From an uncultured Candidatus Rokubacteria bacterium (lineage in GTDB: Bacteria > Methylomirabilota > Methylomirabilia > Rokubacteriales > DASRDR01): a DNA stretch of 64,000 bases. The stretch is from NCBI GenBank assembly GCA_963805625.1, contig CAWDVE010000019.1, positions 160,001 to 224,000 of the forward strand. The letters are read 5' to 3'. A program made the translations under genes and the position numbers. Below the pieces are notes generated by a model that saw only the letters and a program-made list of their open reading frames with translations, searched no databases and was not told where the DNA came from. Below are positions 5,348 to 41,702 of this stretch, piece after piece. Numbering within the stretch: position 1 is the stretch's first letter; each line of letters starts with the position of its first letter.

Positions 5348-6441
5348 GCGTGCGCCAGGCGTCGATCGAGGTGCGCGACCTGGTGGTGCGCTACGGTGAG
5401 GTCGCCGCGGTCCGCGGGGTGGGCTTCGACGTCGGCGCCGGCGAGCATCTCACGCTGCTCGGCCCGTCGGGATGCGGCAAGACCACCACGCTACGGGCGA
5501 TCGCCGGGCTGGAGCGGCCGGTGTCGGGTGAGATCCGGATCGGCGGCCACCCGGTGTTCTCGTCCTCGGCGCGCGTGAACGTCCCGGCCGAGCGCCGCGG
5601 GCTGTCGATGGTCTTCCAGTCGTACGCCATCTGGCCGCACATGAGCGTGTTCGACAACGTGGCCTACGGCCTCCGGGTGCGACGGCGGCCGGCCGCCGAG
5701 GTGACGGCGCGCGTCCGCGAGGCGCTCGACCTGGTCCAGCTCGGCGACCTCGGCGCTCGCAGCGCCGCCAAACTGTCCGGCGGCCAGCAGCAGCGCGTCG
5801 CCCTGGCCCGGGCCTTCGTGTTCTCGCCGGCGGTGCTTCTCTTCGACGAGCCGCTGTCGAACCTCGACGCCAAGCTCCGCGCGGAGATGCGCGTGGAGCT
5901 GAAGGAGCTGCAACGCCGCCTGGACATCACCTCCGTGTATGTCACCCACGACCTCGAGGAGGCGCTGGCCATCTCCGACCGGGTGGTGGTGATGCGGGAC
6001 GGCGGCGTCGAGCAGGTCGGCACGCCGGGCGAGATCTACGACCGGCCGCGCAACACGTTCGTCGCCGACTTCGTGGGGTCGGCGAACCTGATCCGGGGCC
6101 GCCGGCGCCCCGACCTCGACCGCGACGGGCTCGTGGTCATCGAGACGCCGGGGGGCGCCCTGGTCCACGGCACCGCCCTCGACCGCCGGGCCGGCACCGA
6201 CGCGCTCATGGCCGTCCGCACGGTCCGCCTGCGCCTCGAGCGCGCGCCGTCGCCCGCGTCCGTCAACGTGTGGCCGGGCCGGATCCGGCAGCGCGTGTTC
6301 CAGGGCGACTTCACGCAGTACCACGTGGACTGGGACGGGCGGCTGCTCATCGTGCGCTCGGCGGCGCCGGAGCCGATGGCCGAGGGCGACCAGGTGTTCG
6401 TCAGCGCCGACCCCCGGCACTGCGTGCTGCTGGAGGAGTAG
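5344..6441 (+). CDS. ABC transporter ATP-binding protein (FbpC/PotA family)
   Basis: [30 protein letters not shown]-terminal TOBE; GTGA overlap with the permease stop. Confidence 0.93.
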
Positions 6442-6486
6442 ACCGTCCTCGTCGCTTTCCGGGCCACGGCGGCCGGGGTGGCCAGC

Positions 6487-7828
6487 CTACTGCGGGCAGA
6501 TGTAGCCGGTCCCGCTGGGGTTCCTGAAGCAGCCGACCGATTCCGGCAGCAGCTGCTTCGGCAGCCACAGCACGACGCTCGGGAACTGCATGCAGAAGCG
6601 CGATGGTGAGCAGGAAGACGACGTAGAGCGGGAGCGACCGGACCATCGCGCGGTAGAACGGCACCCCCACGAACTTGGCGGCGATCAGCAGTGACAGCCC
6701 GTAGGGAGGGGTGATCAGTCCGAACACCAGGGTGGTGATGATCACGACGCCCATGTGCAGCGGGTTGATGTTGCCCAGCTCGGCCAGCTTGATGACGATG
6801 GGCATGAAGATGATGATCGCCGGCACCGCGTCGACGAAGTCGCCGACCAGGATGAACAGCAGCACCAGCAGGAACATGATCATGCGCGGGTCGGTGCCGG
6901 CATAGGCCTCGATGAAGCCGGCGACCGTGTCGGGGCCGCGGAGGTACGCGAGCATCCAGCCGAACGCGGACGCGCCGGCGACGGCCGCCAGGGGCAGCGA
7001 GTAGAGGAGCCCCGTGTACATGAAGTCCCTCGGCAGCTGCCAGACGTGCCGGGGCCGCAGGATCGGGATCAGGACCAGGAGGATGTAGAAGGCGGCCACC
7101 ATGCCCGCCTCGGTCGGCGTGAACCAGCCGGTCAGGATGCCGCCCATGATGATCACCGGGATGACCATGGGCAGGGCGGAGCCGCGGGCGGCGACGAACA
7201 CCTCGACCAGCGTCGCCCGAGGCTTCAGGTGGCCGGTGGGGCCGAAGAAGTAGCTGTAGATCATGAGCCCGATGCCGATCATCACGCCCGGCACGACGCC
7301 GGCCAGGAACAGCCCGCCGATCGACACGTTGCCGGTCGCCCCGTAGACCACCGCCATGATCGAGGGCGGGATCAGGTTGGCGATGGTCGAGGCCGAGGCG
7401 ATCAGCGCCGCGGTGAACGCGCGGTCGTATCGCTCCTTGTCCATCTCCGGCGCGACGGTGCGGCTCAGCACCGCCACGTCGGCGGCGGACGAGCCGGAGA
7501 TCCCGGCGAAGAACATGCTGAAGAGCGTCACGACCTGGGCCAGGCCCCCGCGCAGGTGTCCGACCAGCACCTGCGCCAGGCGGATCATGCGCTGGGTCAC
7601 GTCGGCCGAGGTCATCAGCTCCCCGACCAGCAGGAAGAACGGGATCGCCAGCAGCGTCTCGGAGTCGATCCCGTGGAACAGCTGTCCGATGATCGACTGG
7701 AAGCTGACGGGGGTCAGCGACGTGGCGACGAGGACGCCGCCGATCAGCGCGAAGGCGACCGGCACGCCCATGTAGCCCAGCCCCAGGAACAGGAGCGCCA
7801 TCAGCACGAGGATCGCGCTGGAGCTCAT
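6487..7828 (-). CDS. dctM: TRAP transporter large permease (frameshift near 6600)
   Basis: LAIPFFLLVGELM, GISGSSAAD, LIPPS, FTPTEAG, GLITPPYG; C-terminus continues in another frame to TAG at 6487. Confidence 0.9.
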
Positions 7829-31247: not shown

Positions 31248-32078
31248 TCAGAAGGGCTTGTCGCCCTGGATCGTGACCCGCAGACCGCGGCGCCGGTTCG
31301 GGTAGTAGTCCCAGAGCGCGTGGTGCTGCACCTGGCGGTTGTCCCAGAACGCGATCGAGCCCGGCTGCCACTGAAACCGGCAGTGGAACTCCGGGGTCTC
31401 GATGTGGCGATAGAGCATCTCCAGCACGGCGTCGCTCTCGAGCTTCGAGAGCTGCACGATGCGCGAGGTGAAGAGGCGGTTGACGAAGAGCGTCTTGCGG
31501 CCGCTCACGGGGTGCGTCCGGATGACGGGATGCTCGGCCTTCGGATAGGCCTTGTCGACCGGGCTCGCGTTCTCGTAGCGGCCACGGTACACATGCTCCC
31601 CGTCGTGGATGGCGGTCAGGCCCTCGAGGAACCGCTGCATGGGCGCCGAGAGCGCGTCGTAGGCGGCGCCCATGCTGGCGAACAACGTGTCGCCGCCGAC
31701 CGGCGGCACCTCGAGCATGTAGAGGATCGTCCCCATGGGCGGCTCCGGATCGCACGAAACATCCGAGTGCCAGTCCTCGCCCGCGATCCGCTTCGATTTC
31801 TCGTCGGCGAAGATCACCATGATCTCGGGGTGCCCGTCGAGCAGCATCGGGTAAGCGGGGTGGATGTGCAGCGCGCCGAAGCGCCGGGCGAATGTGGTGT
31901 GCTGCTCCGGCGTGATGGTCTGGTCGCGGAAGAAGATGACGCCGTGTTCAATCAGGGCCTGGTGGATCGCGGTGAACGTGGCCTCGGGCAGATCCTGGGA
32001 CAGGTCCGCCCCGCGGATCGTCGCCCCGCAGTGCGGCGTCGTCCTGCTGACCTCGATCGGCGTGCCACTCATGCTCAC
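31248..32078 (-). CDS. TauD/TfdA family Fe(II)/2-oxoglutarate dioxygenase
   Basis: WHSDVS, GGDTLFAS, HPVIRTHP, WDNRQVQHHA. Confidence 0.93.
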   Translation of the reverse strand: MSMSGTPIEVSRTTPHCGATIRGADLSQDLPEATFTAIHQALIEHGVIFFRDQTITPEQHTTFARRFGALHIHPAYPMLLDGHPEIMVIFADEKSKRIAGEDWHSDVSCDPEPPMGTILYMLEVPPVGGDTLFASMGAAYDALSAPMQRFLEGLTAIHDGEHVYRGRYENASPVDKAYPKAEHPVIRTHPVSGRKTLFVNRLFTSRIVQLSKLESDAVLEMLYRHIETPEFHCRFQWQPGSIAFWDNRQVQHHALWDYYPNRRRGLRVTIQGDKPF

Positions 32079-32129
32079 GCTCCCCCCTTCGCCAGTGGGC
32101 CAACGGGATAGCAGGGGTGCCGGACCCGC

Positions 32130-32648
32130 CTAGAAGGGTAACCCCTTCAGCCCCTGCACGCCCTTGAGCGCGGCGATCTCCCCGTTGTGCTCGGCGACGT
32201 GCCAGACGACGATGTTGCCCAGGACGAATGCGACGGTCTGCTCGCCGACGAAGCCCGTGTCGACCTTCCGCTCGAGGTCGGCCGGCCCGAGGCTCGACAC
32301 GTAGGCGTCGGTGGCGGCGTAGACCGCCTTGGCGTACTCCCGGAAGGACGGGAGGTGCATCCTGACCGTCCGGCCCCACGCGGGATCGAACATGGGGCTC
32401 GCCGGCATGGCGACGTTCAGCCGCGAGGCCCAGCCGTGGGACTGGTACACGAGCGGCTTCTTCTGGAGCATGCCCTGGATGATTCCGTCCTCGCTGAACA
32501 TGATGTGCGCGTAGATGGAGCCGACGTTCGTGATGGTGGCGTTGGGGAGGTTTCGGTCCAGCGTGTCCTGCGCGCAGTCCGCGACGGTCTGCTCGAGGAT
32601 GTCGTGATAACCGGCGAGTTGCTGCCTGAGGAGACTCTGAGGGGTCAT
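32130..32648 (-). CDS. DinB family protein
   Basis: SIYAHI and WHVAEHNGEIAALKG. Confidence 0.82.
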   Translation of the reverse strand: MTPQSLLRQQLAGYHDILEQTVADCAQDTLDRNLPNATITNVGSIYAHIMFSEDGIIQGMLQKKPLVYQSHGWASRLNVAMPASPMFDPAWGRTVRMHLPSFREYAKAVYAATDAYVSSLGPADLERKVDTGFVGEQTVAFVLGNIVVWHVAEHNGEIAALKGVQGLKGLPF

Positions 32649-32749
32649 CGACGTTCCTTTCTCGATGTTGATCAGATGATCGCGCTCTCAGTACACACGA
32701 GGCGGGAGGAACCGTCAATCGTCTCGTGTCACTCCTACCGGAGACGGGT

Positions 32750-32908
32750 GCTCCCTTCGCGGCGGGGCGCTTGCGAGCGGCGGCCGCGAAGCGGTACAAG
32801 AGGGTGGAGAGCGTGACGGCCGTGATCTGGAAGACGATGGGCAACGTGGAGCGGACGTGCCGATGGCTCGACGTGCCCGAGCGGCTGGCACGGCGGCGGA
32901 GGGCGTGA
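32750..32908 (+). mobile_element. degenerate C-terminal fragment of an IS256-family transposase
   Basis: PFAAGRLRAAAAKRYKRVESVTAVIWKTM..VERTCRWLDVPE resembles the IS256 C-terminus (recognised from memory); no other IS parts seen. Confidence 0.55.
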
Positions 32909-32916
32909 CGGGCATC

Positions 32917-35900
32917 ATGCGCTGTAGCGGGTGCGGCTTCGAGGCACCCGCCGACTTCGCGTTCTGCCCCAAGTGTGGAACGCGGCTCGCCGCCGCTCCC
33001 GCGCCGCCGTCTCGGCCCGCCCCGCCGCCCGAGTCCGAGGGCGACCGCCGTCCGGTCACCGTGCTTTTCGCAGACCTGGCCGGGTTCACCACGCTCAGCG
33101 AAGAACTCGACCCCGAGGACGTGCGCGCCATCCAGAGCGATCTCTTCCGCGAGATGTCCGGGGCGATCGAGCGCTACGAGGGCTTCGTCGAGAAGTTCGT
33201 GGGTGACGCGGTCATGGCGATCTTCGGCGCCCCGCGTGCGCACGAGGACGATCCCGAGCGCGGGCTGCGCGCCGCCCTCATGATGCGCGAGCGGATGGGC
33301 GCGCTCAGTCTCCGCTGGGAGGGACGGGTGGGGCGGCCGCTCGCGCTGCACATCGGGGTCAACACCGGCCCGGTCGTGACGGGCCGGATCGGCGCGGCCG
33401 CCGACGCCGCCTACGCGGTGACCGGTGACACCGTCAACACCGCCTCTCGCCTGCAGAGCGCTGCGCCGCCGGGTGAAATCCTGGTCAGCGACGCGACCTA
33501 TCAGCTCACTCATCACGCGTTCGCGTTCGCCTCGCGCCAGGAGGTCCCGCTCAAGGGCAAGAGCGAGCCAGTGGGGGTCCATCGCCTGCTGGGCCCGCTG
33601 ACGGTCCCGCGCTCGGCCCGCGGCCTCGAGGGCCTCGGGCTGGCCGCGCCCCTGGTGGGGCGCGAGCGCGAGCTTCGCCGGATGGAAACGGTCTTCGACG
33701 ACATGCGAGCGGGGCGCGGCCAGGTGCTGAGCCTCATCGGCGAGCCCGGAGCGGGGAAGTCGCGGCTGCAGCGGGAGATTCTCGCGCGCCTCGATGCGAC
33801 CGGGCGCCTCGAGGGTGTCACGATCCGGCGCGCGGTGTGCTCGGCGCTGGGCGAGCAGACCTACGGGGCGGTTGCCGCGCTCCTGCGCGACGCCTACGGG
33901 GTGGAGCAGGGCGATTCCGTCGAGGTTGCGCGGAGCAAGCTCGTCGCGGGCCTGGTGACGCTCGGGGTCGACGTGGCGGATCGCTCGGCGATCGTGGCCG
34001 CGCTCGCCCGGGTGTTCGGGCTCGAGCGCGATGAGGCGCGCATGCGCCACCTGGAGCCCGAGCAGGTCAAGCGCCAGATCTTCATGGCCACCCGCGCCCT
34101 GTTGGAGCGGCGGCTCGCCGCCGGCCCGCTGGTGCTGGTGGTCGAGGATCTGCACTGGGCCGACGCCGCCTCCATCGAGCTCCTAGGCGCGGTTGCGGAC
34201 CAGCTTGCCGACCGCCCGCTCCTGCTCCTCCTGATGTATCGGCCGACGCTCGATCCGGACACGCTGGGGACGGGCCGAGCCCCGCACACCGCGATCGAGG
34301 TCACGCCGCTGTCGCGGTCCGGTAGCGAGGACCTCCTGGCCGCGTGGTTCGGTGACTCGACCCATCTCTTTCCGGAGCACCTGCGGGCCCAGATCCTGGA
34401 GCGGACCGGCGGCAACCCCCTGTACCTCGAGGAGGTGGTGCGCGCCCTGATCGCGGCGGGGGTGCTGGTCCGCGCTGGCGCGGTGTGGCGCTGCACTGCC
34501 GGAGGCCTCGACTGCGCAGGTGCCCTCCACCCTCCACGGGCTGCTGCTCGCGCGTCTGGACCGGCTCGACGCCGCCGAGCGACGGGTCATCCAGGAAGCG
34601 GCGGTGATCGGGCCCCGCTTCGAGGTTGCCGCTGCTGAAGGCGGTCTCGGCCGAGCCCGGTGCGGTGGACGCGGCGCTCGACGTGCTCGCCGGAGCCGAT
34701 CTGGTGACGCCGGGGCCGGATCACCGGTTCCGCCACGGGCTCCTCCAGGAGATCGTGTACCAGAACATCCTCGTGGCCCGTCGCACCGAGTTGCACACGC
34801 GCGTGGGCACGGCCCTCGAGGCCCAGGGCGGGGCAGCGACGAGAGTCTCGATCGGCTGGTGGCCCTCGGCCACCACTTCGCCCTCAGCGCCGACAAGCGC
34901 CGGGGCGCGGTTACCTGATCGCGGCCGGCGACTGGGCGCGCGGCCTGTACGCCAACGCGGACGCGATCCAGCACTACCAGCGGGCTCTCGATGCCCTCGA
35001 GCGCTGCGATGCGGTCGAGACGGAGCGGCTGGCGGCTCGGGAGCGCATGGCCGACCTGCTCGGCCCGACCGGGCGACGGGCGGCGGCGCTGGGTGAGTAC
35101 GAGATCGTGGAGGCCGGGTACCGCGCGGCGCGGGATGCGCCGGCCCAGGCGCGGATCCTTCGCAAGATGGGGGGTCTCCACTGGGACGCCGGCGCACGGG
35201 CACGGGCGCTCCAGTGCTTCGAGGCGGGACTCGCTCTGCTCGGCGACCATCGAGAGCACATCGAGCAGGCGCACCTCTACCAGGAGATGGGCCGGCTGGC
35301 CTTCCGAAGCGGCGACAGCCAGCGGGCCGTCGAATGGGCGGAGCAGGCGCGGCTCCACGCCGAGCGGATCGCCGCCGCCCCCGTGCTCGACGCGGACGGG
35401 CGCGGGGAAGCGGTGACCGCCGTGGCGCAGAGCCACAACACACTCGGCGTCGCCTGGGCCCGCCTGGGCCGGCTCGAGGAGGCGGTCGCGCACATCGAGC
35501 GCAGCGTGGCCCTCGCCCAGGAGAATGGGCTGCTGCAGGCCGCCTGTCGCGGGCTCGCCAACCTGAGCGTGCTCTACAGCACGCTCGATCCGGGTCGGGC
35601 GATCGAGACCTGTGCGGCCGGCCTCGAGACGGCCAAGAAGATCGGCGACCTCGGCTTCCAGTCGCGCCTGTACGCGAACCTCGCGGTGGCCTACTGCGCA
35701 CTCACCAACCGCTGCGACGAGCAGGGTATCGGTGCGGCACACGCCGCGATCGATCTCGATCGGCGCCTCGGGCAGCTCGATCACCTGGCGGTGCCGCTCA
35801 TCGTGCTCGGGCAGATCTACCAGTGTCACGGCGATCCGGCCCGGGCGATCGCGCACTACCAGGAGGCGCTCGCGCTCGCGGAGGCGGCCGGCGAGCCGCA

Positions 35901-36054
35901 GCTCCTGTTTCCCTGCTACGATGGGCTCGCGACCGTCCACCTGGACCTGGGCGACGAAGGTCGGGCGGAAGAGTTCATGCAGAAGGCCCAGGCGGTCTGC
36001 GAGCGGGCCGGGCTCGAGCCCGACGCGCTCGTGGTGCTGCCGTTCTTGGATTGA
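32917..36054 (+). CDS. class III adenylate/guanylate cyclase with zinc ribbon, AAA ATPase and TPR domains (frameshifts at about 34500-34910)
   Basis: CSGC..CPKC, VLFADLAGFT, KFVGDAVMAIFG, GDTVNTASRL, GEPGAGKSRL, EDLHWAD, TPR region 35047-36054. Confidence 0.88.
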
Positions 36055-36078
36055 CTCGAGAAAAGGGAGACACTCGTC

Positions 36079-36738
36079 ATGGCGTTCCTGCGCCCGGGTG
36101 ATCCGGCTCCCCACTTCGCGCTGCCCGCCGTCAATCGAGAGGGCCAGGTCTCGCTCGACGACTATCGCGGTCGCAGTCCGATCCTGCTGGGCCTGTTCCG
36201 CGGCCTGCACTGACCCTTCTGCCGGCGCCAGCTCGTGCAGCTGGGCACCACGCAGGAGAAGCTCAAGGCGGTGGGTGTGGAGACGGTGGCGGTGGTCAAC
36301 ACCCCGCTGGAGCGCGCGCGGCTCTACTTCAAGTACCGCCCCGCGCGCGTGCTGCTGCGGCGGACCCGGAGGCGGCGACGCACCGGGCGTTTGGGGTGCC
36401 CGCCGGCGTGATCGTCGAGGACGAATCGGCGACCTCGTGGCCCCAGAGCGCTACGATGGGCCAGCTGCTGGCGGCGGAGATCAATCCCACCGGGGAGCTG
36501 CCGGCGCCTCAGAACCCCTTCGCGGCGATGGAGACCCTGAACAAGCAAGACGGGTTCGAGCCGACCGAGACCGACCACCAGATCGCGGCCGCGCACGGCA
36601 CCCAGCTGGCCGGGCACTTCCTCATCGACCGCGAGGGGATCATCGAGGTGGGGGCAGATCGAGGCCGGCGAGCGGATCGGCGACCTCGGCAAGTTCCCGA
36701 GCGACGAGGAGATCCTGCGCGCGGCCCGCGGTCTGTAG
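36079..36738 (+). CDS. AhpC/TSA (redoxin) family selenoprotein, Sec at codon 45 (later frameshifts near 36360 and 36650)
   Basis: MAFLRPGDPAPHFALP..LDDYRG..LFRGLH-[TGA 36211]-PFCRRQL; UxxC occupies the CxxC site and the frame continues past the TGA. Confidence 0.8.
36228..36244 (+). promoter_or_regulatory. putative bacterial SECIS hairpin
   Basis: CCAGCT-cgtgc-AGCTGG; the loop starts 20 nt after the UGA and has G at its second position. Confidence 0.6.
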
Positions 36739-36814
36739 GCCCGGTCGGACAGCTGGTCGAGGCGCCCGGTGTCCCGGACGAGGCCGACGTCGTCGGACAC
36801 GGCCGGTCCTGGCC

Positions 36815-37228
36815 CTACTTCTTGTCGAGCCCCATGTCGCGAAAGCGGTCGACCGCCTCGCTGGGAGCGAAGTCGTCGAGCTCGAACAGCTGGCGCACCT
36901 CGATCTCGGCGTCCTTGCCCTCGCCGGCGAGGTTGGGAAAGCGCTTGGTCCACTCGATCGCCTCTTCCCGCGACTTCGCCTTGATCAGGGTGTAGCCGGC
37001 GAGGAGCTCCTTCGTCTCCGCGAAGGGCCCGTCGGTGAGGGTGCGCCTCCCGCCGGAGTACTTGATGCGCCAGCCCTTCGACGTGGGCTGTAGGCCGGAG
37101 GCGTCGAGGAGCATGCCCGCCTTCGCCAGCTCCTCGTGGTACTGCGCCATCTCGCCGATGAGCTTCTCCTCGGGCATGACACCGGCCTCCGAGTCCCTGG
37201 AGGCCTTGACCATGATCAGGAATCGCAT
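36815..37228 (-). CDS. YciI family (DGPF) protein
   Basis: MRFLIMVKA, GLQPTSKG, DGPFAETKELLAGY, IEVRQLFE. Confidence 0.9.
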   Translation of the reverse strand: MRFLIMVKASRDSEAGVMPEEKLIGEMAQYHEELAKAGMLLDASGLQPTSKGWRIKYSGGRRTLTDGPFAETKELLAGYTLIKAKSREEAIEWTKRFPNLAGEGKDAEIEVRQLFELDDFAPSEAVDRFRDMGLDKK

Positions 37229-37503
37229 CGTCCTATCTCCTCGTCGTGTCAGGTTCGGAGCCGCGTGACCGCGCGGCCGGGCGAAACGGCTCCTCGCCCC
37301 GTAGTCGTCCGGGAGCGCGCAGATCGACATTCGGCCGGCCCGCCTCACACCATGCTACTTGAGGGCAATCATAGCCGGGGCGGCTGCTGACGCTCGGGCT
37401 GGCCCTGTTCCTGGAGAACGCGGCCCTCGCCGCCTTCCGGGCGGACCCGCGAAGCCTCCAGCTCGGCTACCGGCTACCGCCGCTCCTACTCGGCGAGGCG
37501 GTC

Positions 37504-37860: not shown

Positions 37861-37999
37861 CCTCTGACCGGCCTCGCCGTCCCCCGGCGAGCATCGGTCG
37901 CGCGTGCCCGAGGGAGCCTTGTCTCGCCCGCTGGCCTTCGGCTATGGTGAGGTCGGCCATCGGCAGGTTCACGGATGTGAGCCCAAAGGGGGAGCTCGG

Positions 38000-39227
38000 A
38001 TGCGAACGGCATTGATCGGCGGTGTGCTCATCGACGGCTCAGGCGGCCCGCCCCTGCGCGACGCCACCCTCGTCATCGAGGGCAGCAAGATCGCCGACGT
38101 GGGCCACCAACGCGCGTTCGGCCCGGAGGTGCGGGTTGTGGATCTGGGCGGCCGCACGGTCATGCCGGGGCTGATCGATTGCCACATCCACTTCGCCCAC
38201 TGGGGCATGAACCTGATCGCGTACCAGGGGCAGAGCCTGATGCTCCTGGCGGCCGAGACGATCGCCGCGCTGCGGACCACCCTCGAGGCTGGCTGCACGA
38301 CCGCGCGAGACCTCGGCGGGCTCGACGCCGGGTTCCGCGAGGCGGTGGCCGGGGCCTCGTCCCGGGACCTCGCCTGCACTGCAGCCTGGTCATCGTTTCG
38401 CCGACGAACGGGATCGTCGACGCCACGACCCCGCAGGGGCTCGCGTCGCCGGTCGTCCCCGGCATGCCCCGGCCGGAATGCGACGGTCCCTACGGCGCCC
38501 GTGCGAAGGTGCGCGAGGTGCTACGGCAGGGCGCGGACGTGATCAAGATCGCGACCAGCGGCGGCGTCAGCTCCGCAAAGCTTCACCCGAAGCGCCCGAT
38601 CTTCACGGCTGAGGAGGTCGAGGCGATCGTCGACGAGGCCCACATGGCCGGCGTGCCCGTGTGCTGCCACGCGCTCGGCGGCCGGGGATCCTGACGGCGG
38701 TCAGGGCCGGTGTCGACACCATCGAGCACGGTGGCTGGCTCGACGACGAGTGCATCGAGGAGATGGTGCGGCGCGGCACCTGGTACGTGCCCACCTTCGC
38801 GGTCTACCGGTGGCACGGCACGCTCGGCCCGTCGTTCAAGCAGGAGCGGGCCCGGGCGATGCACGAGCACCACGTGCAGAGCTTCGGTCGGGCGCTGCGG
38901 GCGGGCGTGCGGATCGCCATGGGCACCGACGCGGGCGGCTACGGGTACGGCGACAACGGGCTCGAGCTTGCCCTCATGGTCGAGGGGGGCATGACCCCGG
39001 CCCAGGCCATCGAGGTCAGCACCCGGCGGTCGGCGGAGTGCATGGGAATCGCCGACGAGGTGGGCACGCTGGCCCGCGGCAAGGAAGCCGATCTCATCGT
39101 CATCGACGCGGATCCCCTCGGGGACATCGGCGTGTTGCGCGAGGCGAAGCACCGGGCGCTCGTCATGAAGGGCGGAGGGCCCGTCACGGGGCCCCTGGCG
39201 GCCGCGCTCACCCCGGCCGCGCGCTAG
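38000..39227 (+). CDS. metal-dependent amidohydrolase (Xaa-Pro dipeptidase-like; frameshifts)
   Basis: PGLIDCHIH, TTARDLGG, GADVIKIATSGGV, DTIEHG, MGTDAG, GKEADL. Confidence 0.85.
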
Positions 39228-39250: not shown

Positions 39251-40057
39251 TCAGAACAGGCGGCTGAAGCCCACCACGCGATCGACAACCAGGACGACCG
39301 CGACCGTGAAGACGACCAGGACGGTTGACACGGCCGCCACCAGCGGGTCGCTGTTATACTCGATGTACTGAAAGATCCGGACCGGCAGGGTCATCATGCG
39401 CGGCCCGGCCAGGAACAGGGTCACGACCACCTCGTCGAACGAGGTGATGAACGCGAACACCGCCCCCGCCAGCACGCTGCCCTTGATCAGCGGCAAGGTC
39501 ACGGTCAGGAAGGCGGTCACGCGGCCGGCCCCGAGGCTGCGAGCCGCCTCCTCGATCGATCGATCGAATGCCTGTAGCCCGGACGACACGATCAGGACCA
39601 CGAACGGCAGCACGAGGACGATGTGTGCGGCCAGCAGGCTCACGAAGGAGCCGCCCAGGCCCACGCGGCTGTAGTAGATCAGCATCGCGATCCCGGCGAC
39701 GATCCCCGGCACGGTCAGCGGCGAGGTGAGGAGTCCGCGCGCTGTGCCCGCTCCCCGGAAACACCGGGCGGTCAGCGCCAGCGCCGCCAGGAGGCCGACG
39801 ACGGTGGCGATGGCGGTCGCCACCGCGCCGAGCCGCAGGCTCAGGAGAAGCGAGTTGACGAAGTCGCGGCTCGCCAGGAACTCCCGATACCAGCGGAGCG
39901 ACAGCCCGCGCGGCGGAAAGGCCAGGTACGCGTCCCGGCTGAAGGACGCGACGATCACCACCAGGATCGGCGCCAGCAGAAACAGGCAGACGATCGCGTT
40001 GACGCTCCAGAGGGCGAGCCGCCTGATGGGGAGCGGCCGCCGGGGCCGCTCCGTCAT
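39251..40057 (-). CDS. ABC transporter permease (PotC type)
   Basis: FPPRGLSLRWY, IEEAARSLGA, FITSFDEV, TLPVRIF. Confidence 0.9.
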   Translation of the reverse strand: MTERPRRPLPIRRLALWSVNAIVCLFLLAPILVVIVASFSRDAYLAFPPRGLSLRWYREFLASRDFVNSLLLSLRLGAVATAIATVVGLLAALALTARCFRGAGTARGLLTSPLTVPGIVAGIAMLIYYSRVGLGGSFVSLLAAHIVLVLPFVVLIVSSGLQAFDRSIEEAARSLGAGRVTAFLTVTLPLIKGSVLAGAVFAFITSFDEVVVTLFLAGPRMMTLPVRIFQYIEYNSDPLVAAVSTVLVVFTVAVVLVVDRVVGFSRLF

Positions 40058-40090
40058 GCTCCGAGCCGATGTTGGGCCTGGGTGCCGCGC

Positions 40091-41024
40091 TCAGTCGTCG
40101 CACCGGATCACCGCACCCACGTGCGGGCGGCGGCGCTCGCCGGCCCGGGAGGATCGTCAGGCCGAGGACCAGCGCGATCAGGATGAACGAGCAGGCGGCG
40201 GCGAACGGCCAGTTCAGCACCGCCGTGGCCTGGTCGTACACGATCGTGGCCATGACCTTGGTGCGGGCGCCGCCGATCAACTTCGGCGTGGCGAAGGCGC
40301 TGACGCTGAGGACGAAGACGAGCAGCGAGCCCGCGGCGACCCCGGGCAGGCTCAGCGGCAGGATAACGTCGCGGAAGACGTGCCACGAGCTGCCGCCCAG
40401 GCTCCGGACCGAGTCCTCGAGGTCGGGGTCGATCTGCTGGATGACCCCGGACAGGGTCAGGACCATGAACGGCATCAGCACCTCAGTCAGCGCGATGACC
40501 GTGCCGGTGAAGTTGAACATGAGCTGCGTCCGGGGGAGCTGGAACGCGGCGAGCAGCGTGTTGGCCACCCCGTTGTTCGCGAGCAGGATCATCCATCCGT
40601 AGCTGCGCACGACCACGCTCGTCATCAGCGGGATCAGCACGATGACGGTGAGCAGCCCCTTCCACCGCGAGCGGCTCCGCGCCAGCGTGTACGCGAGCGG
40701 GTATGACAAGATGAGGGCCAGCACGGCCACTGCGGCGCCCATGAGCAGGGTGTCGACGAGGATGGATCGATAGAAGGCGTCGGAGACGAAGCGCCAGTAG
40801 TTGTCCAGGATGAGCGCGGGCTCCTGCCGTCCGCCCGGCAGGAAGCGATAGAAGCTGTACGCGAGCATGATCGCCAGGGGAGCGAAGAAGAACGGGACCA
40901 GCAAGAGGGCGCTCGGGAGCATCAGGACCGCCCACGGCAGCCACCGGCCCCGGCGCGATGGCCGCCGCCCCGACGCGGGCGCGATCACGCCGGTCGGATG
41001 ATCCGGCACGCGCTCGCCGGCCAT
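40091..41024 (-). CDS. ABC transporter permease (PotB type; frameshift near 3' end)
   Basis: LSYPLAY, SVVVRSYGW, LEDSVRSLGG, FATPKLIGG, NWPFAAA. Confidence 0.85.
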
Positions 41025-41063
41025 CCCAGCGCCACGCGGTCGTCCGCGCGAACCCGCCGCGGC

Positions 41064-41702
41064 CTACCTCGGTCTCTGAACCTGGCAGTCTGAGACTTCA
41101 GGCGCTCCGCACCCCTCCCGCAGCTTGGCGTCGAGGTTCGACAACGGCTCGTCGAGCAGCAGGAGCGAGGGTCGGATGACGATGGCCCGCGCGAGCGCGA
41201 CGCGCTGTTGCTGACCACCGCTCAGCTGGCGGGGGAATCGCTTCGCCAGGCCGGGCAGCTGGACCAGTCCCAGCGCTTCCTCGACCCGCCGGCGGCGCTC
41301 GGCCACGGGGACCCGGCGCATGCGGAGGCCGTAGGCGACGTTGTCCTCGACCGTCATGTGGGGGAACAGACCGTAGCTCTGGAAGACCATGCCGATGTCC
41401 CGTTTGTTGGGCGGGAGCCGGGTGACGTCCTCGGCCCCGATCCGGATCTCGCCGGCATCCGGCTCGACGAAGCCCGCAATCATGCGGAGCGTCGTGGTCT
41501 TGCCGCATCCGCTAGGGCCCAGCAGCGTGACGAACTCCCCGGCCCGGACCTCGACGGACACCGCGTCGACCGCGACGACGTCGTCGAATGTCTTGACGAC
41601 GTCGCGCAGCGTCAGCGCGGCGACTGCCGCGTCGGCGACGACGGCCACGGGCGCGAGGCTACGTCCGTGGGCCGGCGGCGGGGTGGAGGACCCCGCCGCC
41701 AT
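41064..41702 (-). pseudogene. ABC ATP-binding protein (PotA type), truncated after the D-loop
   Basis: [34 protein letters not shown], then unrelated sequence; H-loop and TOBE absent. Confidence 0.75.

Follow-up and report, generated by a model that had tools for sequence, protein, structure and literature searches.

The locus described here raises two questions: whether a redoxin gene with an in-frame TGA codon encodes a selenoprotein, and what the product would have to do with the large signaling ATPase encoded directly upstream of it. Both genes lie on the forward strand of the window, by which we mean the whole stretch of 64,000 nucleotides of contig C19 that was analyzed. The redoxin gene (36079–36738) runs from an ATG at 36079 to a TAG at 36736–36738; Pfam matches, alignment and a predicted structure indicate a protein of the Prx/TlpA fold of about 219 residues, with a UxxC motif and a helical insert of about 65 residues. 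The first-pass annotation had read an AhpC/TSA frame with a thioredoxin fold from this ATG, and the Pfam families AhpC-TSA and Redoxin indeed match residues 6–78, across the TGA. That codon (36211–36213) is codon 45 and, as read off the sequence, stands at the first Cys of the CxxC motif (GLH-[TGA]-PFC), as had been claimed; the alternation of U and C among relatives predicts it to be selenocysteine. The second Cys of the U/CxxC motif (36220–36222) is invariant in the alignment. The distance of 24 nt between the stop codon of the upstream cyclase gene (36052–36054) and the redoxin ATG was likewise found in the sequence as described, and a purine-rich motif resembling a ribosome-binding site, AAGGGAGA, is present at 36063–36070, 8 nt upstream of the ATG. 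Rfam gave no match within 32000–37500, and a promoter scan found none.

The reported gene at 36079–36738 is confirmed, with the ATG, the TGA and the TAG all present; what the first-pass annotation overlooked is that two indels leave no single open frame in the assembly. Compared with its relatives, this copy has one base missing at ~36356 and one extra at ~36645, a compensating pair that puts residues 94–188 out of frame and introduces two more TGAs. At ~36356, short-read contigs of relatives from four runs show the other form, as do those from three runs at ~36645; none of these contigs spans both genes. The upstream gene carries four further single-base indels (34499, 34624, 34830 and 34909), giving six in the 3.8 kb of the operon vs none in 26 control genes on other contigs, in a comparison run with 150 of the 388 query proteins. 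Counted by stretch, 7 frameshift sites fell within 26–46 kb of the window as against 0–3 per control stretch, two of the 7 being in a nearby amidohydrolase. The amidohydrolase and the ABC-transporter genes close to it, which look frameshifted by eye, are found at 37904–39227 and 39354–41702, and this stretch of the contig is altogether rich in indels. The six operon indels may reflect either a local assembly error or decay of this copy; we regard decay of the window's own operon as possible, if somewhat doubtful, and it is a question apart from the meaning of the TGA.

That meaning is best read from other copies. Motif matches over loci L027–L254 yielded 168 distinct redoxin copies, and at the motif column these carry TGA in 30 cases, TGC in 108 and TGT in 30 (138 Cys); neither TAA nor TAG occurs there in any of the motif matches. 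The alternation between Cys and UGA that the first-pass annotation had proposed to look for is thus present. On a quick tree of 107 redoxin rows with the U/C column masked, parsimony counts 8 switches between U and C, and at least 4 are forced by well-supported branches. Of two paralogues in the same genome, the one on contig C17 keeps this TGA within an intact frame and the one on C18 has Cys in its place. Short-read contigs gave a similar picture, with TGA at this position and TGT as the only other variant listed; these contigs come from relatives only, as no public run was found to contain half of the words of the stretch.

The genome also contains selA, selB, selC (the tRNA-Sec gene) and selD. 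On contig C21, next to selA and selC, selB is broken by a frameshift into two parts that each score below the cut-off. The selC-selA-selB cluster lies at G000:C21:223609-228224 and selD elsewhere, at G000:C10:162221-163141; selD itself carries an in-frame TGA together with a strong hairpin that has a GGA loop. A selA match was found in 16 of the 18 genomes with a TGA copy at the locus vs 42 of the 61 others; of 22 relatives chosen because they had a TGA-containing match, a set that overlaps the 18, 20 gave a selA match. The two of the 18 that gave none both possess a TGA-containing selD, which suggests that the selABC cluster is unassembled in them, although one is listed as 98% complete. Genomes that carry a TGA copy and gave no selA match include G025 (listed as 98% complete) and G024 (89%). 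Five Variovorax genomes without a selA match have stop-free redoxin copies only. None of the contrary findings named in advance (TGC, TGT or TGG in the reads, absence of selABCD, or homologues with neither Cys nor UGA at this column) applies to the redoxin. Judging from these comparisons, we consider it very probable that the UGA is read as selenocysteine. Selenium is nevertheless optional for the redoxin, as 138 of the 168 copies use Cys. A second and more distant AhpC/TSA family (~40% identity in many relatives) is widespread in the order and has one in-frame TGA; it probably represents further Prx-like selenoproteins.

A hairpin downstream of the TGA, CCAGCT-CGTGC-AGCTGG, had been reported as well. 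It is found at 36228–36244 with the loop, CGUGC, beginning 20 nt past the UGA, and it resembles a SECIS element. The passages on these elements in PMC13188914 describe a bacterial model with a loop of 3–9 nt, a G in the first two loop positions, a spacing of 16–37 nt and an MFE of at most -7.5 kcal/mol. In our own implementation of these rules, 24 of 27 TGA copies were predicted to carry a SECIS element vs 27 of 88 Cys copies, against a background in which 154 of 600 random 60-mers of this genome also pass. The loop contains GU in 28 of 30 TGA copies vs 41 of 138 Cys copies. Compared with shuffled sequences the hairpin was not significantly stable (z = -1.34), and no compensatory change was seen in the 6 stem pairs of 17 aligned TGA copies, the stem being constrained by coding as well; in some Cys-coded copies the hairpin is identical. 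By itself the hairpin is weak evidence for the selenocysteine reading.

The redoxin was modeled by AlphaFold2 as a Prx/TlpA fold with a mean pLDDT of 95.9. The nearest solved folds are those of AhpE and BCP (Z 17–18, ~148 of 216 residues aligned), and the best PDB matches by sequence are reductases of the TlpA/ResA/DsbE type. The peroxiredoxin motif PxxxT/SxxC(U) is absent; the site reads LFRGLH-U-PFC, and in 35 aligned copies neither Cys is preceded by a Pro/Thr pattern. PF00578 and PF08534 both score above cut-off, and together with the Prx/Trx fold and the UxxC motif they place the protein among the Prx-like UxxC oxidoreductases. The earlier statement that AhpC-like proteins are a known kind of selenoprotein agrees with the sections of PMC13188914 and PMC1088965 on Prx-like UxxC families. 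Like the Prx-like PF00578 (UxxC/UxxU) and Redoxin PF08534 (UxxC) selenoproteins, the redoxin has UxxC in place of TxxU, and Cys homologues are widespread. It differs from them in its size (~220 residues), in the helical insert of ~65 residues, which has no counterpart in solved chains, and in its fixed position behind a STAND sensor, a neighborhood that does not appear in the operon section (section 9) of PMC13188914. The best NCBIfam match is NF040769 (SelL-related; compare AhpC-TSA_2, PF13911), with which the redoxin shares the CxxCR motif and the position of the insert; however, all of six redoxins scored 49.5–64.3 bits vs a cut-off of 120, so that the protein is not a member by the curated models, and PF13911 gave 17–23 bits vs a cut-off of 27. 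By its family matches the redoxin would add one more member to the Prx-like UxxC selenoproteins already known and, taken alone, an ordinary one.

The gene upstream (32917–36054) encodes, as judged from domain matches, a STAND protein of SWACOS-type architecture, with the four indels mentioned above. An N-terminal zinc ribbon, CxxC...CxxC (32923–32976), is followed by a class III cyclase domain (33052–33567) and a STAND NTPase domain (AAA_16, 33649–34227) with the Walker A sequence GEPGAGKS and the Walker B sequence VEDLHW, all three assigned by domain match and alignment; a Cys/His-rich TPR tail ending in LPFLx (35407–36051) was recognized by alignment and predicted structure. SWACOS-type STAND NTPases were reportedly defined by Leipe et al. 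in 2004, a paper cited in PMC8195603 and PMC7159879. The family resembles them in having an adenylyl cyclase or Ser/Thr kinase head and an AAA_16 NTPase with Walker A and B motifs, followed by C-terminal repeats, here TPR. What sets this subfamily apart from other SWACOS-type STANDs is the conserved Cys/His tail ending in LPFLx, an Ala in the cyclase domain and the near-obligate redoxin gene; the other STAND cyclases of this genome have none of the three.

The Asp, Asp, Lys, Asn and Arg of the cyclase domain, which we take to be the metal-binding, catalytic and base-specifying residues of class III cyclases, and the Walker A Lys are each present in 56 of 56 full-length homologues. In 55 of the 56, the second base-specifying position (within 33412–33450 of the window) is Ala. 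Adenylyl cyclases usually have Asp or Thr at the second adenine-specifying position, and the Ala therefore makes the product nucleotide uncertain. Most of the other STAND cyclases of this genome that were matched by motif have Thr, with Gln replacing the Lys.

The TPR tail is the best-conserved region of the 56 full-length homologues (mean 0.85–0.86 vs 0.58–0.81 elsewhere), and five of its Cys occur in every one. Numbered as in P0002, His951 and Cys965 of the tail are found in all of 35 distant representatives, Cys995 in 33 and Cys922 in 31; the median number of tail Cys is 7 (n = 35) vs 2 in 20 other STAND proteins of this genome. The predicted structure of the TPR part matches generic TPR superhelices, and the last six residues were not placed. 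The protein ends in LPFL plus one residue (P0002 residue 1040); this last residue is a Cys in 14 of the 18 kinase-headed members and in 22 of the 56 that have a cyclase head. In rare cases, P0004 and P0024, the same tail rich in Cys bears a BTAD transcription-activator head; the two were left out of the effector swaps that keep a redoxin, as none of 119 further relatives of P0004 carries the tail and no locus was seen. Two apparent fusions of cyclase, STAND and redoxin (P0160 and P0164) were left out as well, as the tail, read in the wrong frame, makes up their junction and their 90% cluster also holds split forms of 1105 and 226 residues; a weak search for such fusions gave one match among 7993 scored candidates.

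The association of the two genes across genomes, which the first-pass annotation had suggested examining, proved to be very strong, although the counts that follow include kin, are not independent and are given without a P value. A genome scan with the STAND tail gave 427 related stretches; the best 80 came from Rokubacteria/Methylomirabilota, Beta-, Gamma- and Alphaproteobacteria (including cultured Variovorax) and others, the nearest named relatives among these 80 being Rokubacteria. In 71 of the 80, a redoxin with an intact motif lies directly downstream (13 TGA, 58 Cys). The other nine comprise one locus with no DNA left, one at a contig end, one that is broken, one remnant and five with another gene in this place. 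A metagenome scan ranked on a kinase-headed member gave 79 of 80 loci with the pair: 18 of 18 with a kinase head, 34 of 35 with a cyclase head and 27 of 27 whose head was off the contig or unrecognized; in the single remaining locus 26 nt of DNA are left. When 151 genomes were drawn evenly across the phylum, 57 had the tail, 58 the redoxin and 50 the two together; of the 61 tails in this even draw, 56 were followed by a redoxin, either a close one (43) or a diverged one (13). The diverged STAND clade was paired with the diverged redoxin clade in 13 of 18 fetched loci. We thus observe one STAND subfamily, marked by its Cys/His TPR tail, with a redoxin directly behind it in many soil and groundwater bacteria.

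All 18 kinase-headed loci, which collapse to 11 clusters at an identity threshold of 90% and to 6 at 80%, retain both the redoxin and the Cys/His residues of the tail. In these a Ser/Thr kinase stands in place of the cyclase. As the kinase-headed versions keep the redoxin, the pairing follows the NTPase-TPR part rather than the cyclase. The kinase-headed clade probably has a single origin, judging by its sequences, and in an effector swap the downstream gene would stay by linkage alone. The dependence is asymmetric: the STAND gene is nearly always accompanied by a redoxin, whereas 54 of the 111 redoxin matches in the even draw lie away from a full tail (of the rest, 43 are directly behind one, 7 are second in a tandem and 7 are within 6 kb). 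Among the separable clusters listed, a third gene recurred in 12 of 160 loci at most, though the largest cluster, in which the module is merged with other frames, could hide one; 60 sampled neighboring ORFs were metabolic, transport or regulatory.

Several individual loci deserve mention. Both other redoxin copies of this genome, at G000:C17:546733 (L057:8440-9381) and G000:C18:36417 (L058:8180-9044), sit directly behind decayed remnants of a STAND tail, so that the redoxin has outlived its partner at C17 (TGA) and C18 (Cys). Tandem redoxins behind one STAND gene occur in L099, L101, L105, L106, L116 and L124, often one with TGA and one with Cys, in either order. In L094, directly after position 5645, a DJ-1/PfpI-like gene with a Cys nucleophile, recognized by eye from its translation, occupies the usual place of the redoxin. 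The Variovorax loci L129 and L154 encode cNMP-binding proteins on both flanks of the module (~1200-2150 and ~6330-7050), one of them CRP/FNR-like; these are candidate receivers, in the Variovorax lineage only (4 of 180 loci overall).

The reading towards which we lean has the redoxin controlling the thiol state of the TPR sensor, or binding to it according to its own redox state, and thereby gating the output of the STAND cyclase or kinase. It is in line with the first-pass annotation, which had proposed a co-transcribed selenocysteine redox partner and possible redox-gated cyclic nucleotide signaling. What argues for this is the fixed gene order, the one-way dependence, the retention of the pair through the effector swap and in the diverged clade, and the Cys-rich, conserved sensor. 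In such a scheme the module would consist of two gene products, a cytoplasmic redoxin of the thioredoxin fold and the cysteine-rich STAND ATPase encoded just upstream. SelB and tRNA-Sec would read the UGA as selenocysteine on the hairpin, and the product would be a dithiol or selenolthiol disulfide reductase rather than a classical peroxidase; its catalytic residue would be Cys or, as an optional and faster version, selenocysteine. The redoxin would then act on the TPR region around His951, Cys965, Cys995 and Cys922, or bind it in a redox-dependent manner, and the resulting change would feed into the usual STAND switch between ADP and ATP and into oligomerization, bringing the cyclase domains (or, in the kinase clade, the kinase domains) together.

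One alternative explanation is that the redoxin is a co-expressed stress enzyme with a substrate of its own (a peroxide, electrophile or persulfide), which shares the operon and the stimulus and does not act on the STAND protein. The 54 of 111 redoxins found away from a full tail fit such an enzyme, as do the tandem extras, the persistence of both other redoxins of this genome behind decayed tail remnants, the closeness of the fold to the peroxiredoxins AhpE and BCP (Z 17–18), and the redox or stress genes, such as catalase and DJ-1/PfpI, among some neighbors. However, the STAND gene is almost never found without a redoxin (56 of 61 tails) and keeps no other gene among the clusters listed, the conserved Cys/His tail would be left unexplained, and the redoxin does not have the Prx motif PxxxTxxC; we consider this explanation unlikely.

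In another scenario, the role of the Cys and His residues of the tail is to coordinate a metal or cofactor or to detect a small ligand, and the redoxin is a maturation factor which keeps the ligand thiols reduced. TlpA and ResA have such a role, and the best PDB sequence matches of the redoxin are to reductases of this type (TlpA/ResA/DsbE); the conservation of His951, Cys965, Cys995 and Cys922 would also suit a set of ligands. Against this, the tail Cys are spread over five repeats. The repeated use of selenocysteine suits fast catalysis, yet it fits maturation as well as redox input. On balance we find this scenario a little less likely still than a separate stress enzyme.

Very unlikely, in our view, is a role of the pair in immunity or abortive infection, with the TPR part sensing a change caused by an invader and the cyclase or kinase passing the signal on to a separate effector. 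The portions of PMC7159879 and PMC8195603 on conflict systems describe STANDs with swapped effectors as common, and the cyclase domain scores against PycC models; but those matches span the generic cyclase domain only, the sensor is the best-conserved region rather than a fast-changing one, PADLOC matches are partial and concern 7 of 60 neighboring ORFs (including cNMP-binding, ABC-ATPase and PLD domains), and a cNMP-binding neighbor occurs in only 4 of 180 loci. That the TGA really ends translation of a decaying gene, the window locus being a pseudogene, is extremely improbable: the six operon indels vs few elsewhere and the truncated STAND remnants in this and related genomes would suit it, but the TGA occurs in otherwise intact copies (the C17 paralogue and the short-read relatives), always at the Cys column, and is accompanied by the loop GU and the selenocysteine machinery.

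Returning to the redox-gating reading, a comparable arrangement is known from animals, where oxidized TRX1 is described in 10.1101/2021.09.20.461118 as binding and restraining the STAND protein NLRP1. The likeness to human NLRP1 and thioredoxin-1, a STAND ATPase restrained by a thioredoxin-fold protein according to redox state, is one of functional analogy only: the NLRP1 sensor is an LRR and binding has been shown, whereas here the sensor is TPR, the output enzymatic, the redoxin dedicated and linked by gene order, and binding a prediction. The module also resembles Pycsar (PycC) in its class III cyclase domain, but differs from it in the attached STAND and TPR parts, in that 176 of 180 loci, and likewise the window, have no adjoining gene for a cognate cNMP receptor, and in showing no defense-island context among the sampled neighbors. 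ASK1 and thioredoxin offer a second analogy. No description of the STAND-redoxin pair was found in a search of the main texts of papers, mostly open-access ones. The main texts of the STAND surveys PMC8195603 and PMC7159879 contain no thioredoxin, peroxiredoxin or redox, the text covered of PMC13236601 has no mention of redox, and that of the 2026 selenoproteome review PMC13188914 has none of a cyclase. Both parts are of known kinds, and the module that they form is apparently undescribed.

Most bacterial STAND cyclases are without a known input and most Prx-like selenoproteins without a known substrate; the pair suggests that each may answer the other. The residues that can be named for the module are His951, Cys965, Cys995 and Cys922 and the U/CxxC motif, and the Cys-coded copies in cultured Variovorax make it testable without selenium genetics. 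The redoxin is also an example of a gene that standard annotation splits or misses in lineages that use selenocysteine. Whether the pair represents a widespread form of bacterial thiol-redox signaling not described before, in which a STAND TPR sensor would be switched directly by a dedicated (seleno)redoxin and its outputs, a cyclic nucleotide or Ser/Thr phosphorylation, would be exchangeable, is a judgment that we find almost evenly balanced, leaning slightly to doubt. If true, thioredoxin-fold redox control of STAND proteins would extend beyond animal inflammasomes, the module would be a bacterial parallel of the control of NLRP1 by thioredoxin, and a selenoprotein would serve as the input of a second-messenger pathway.
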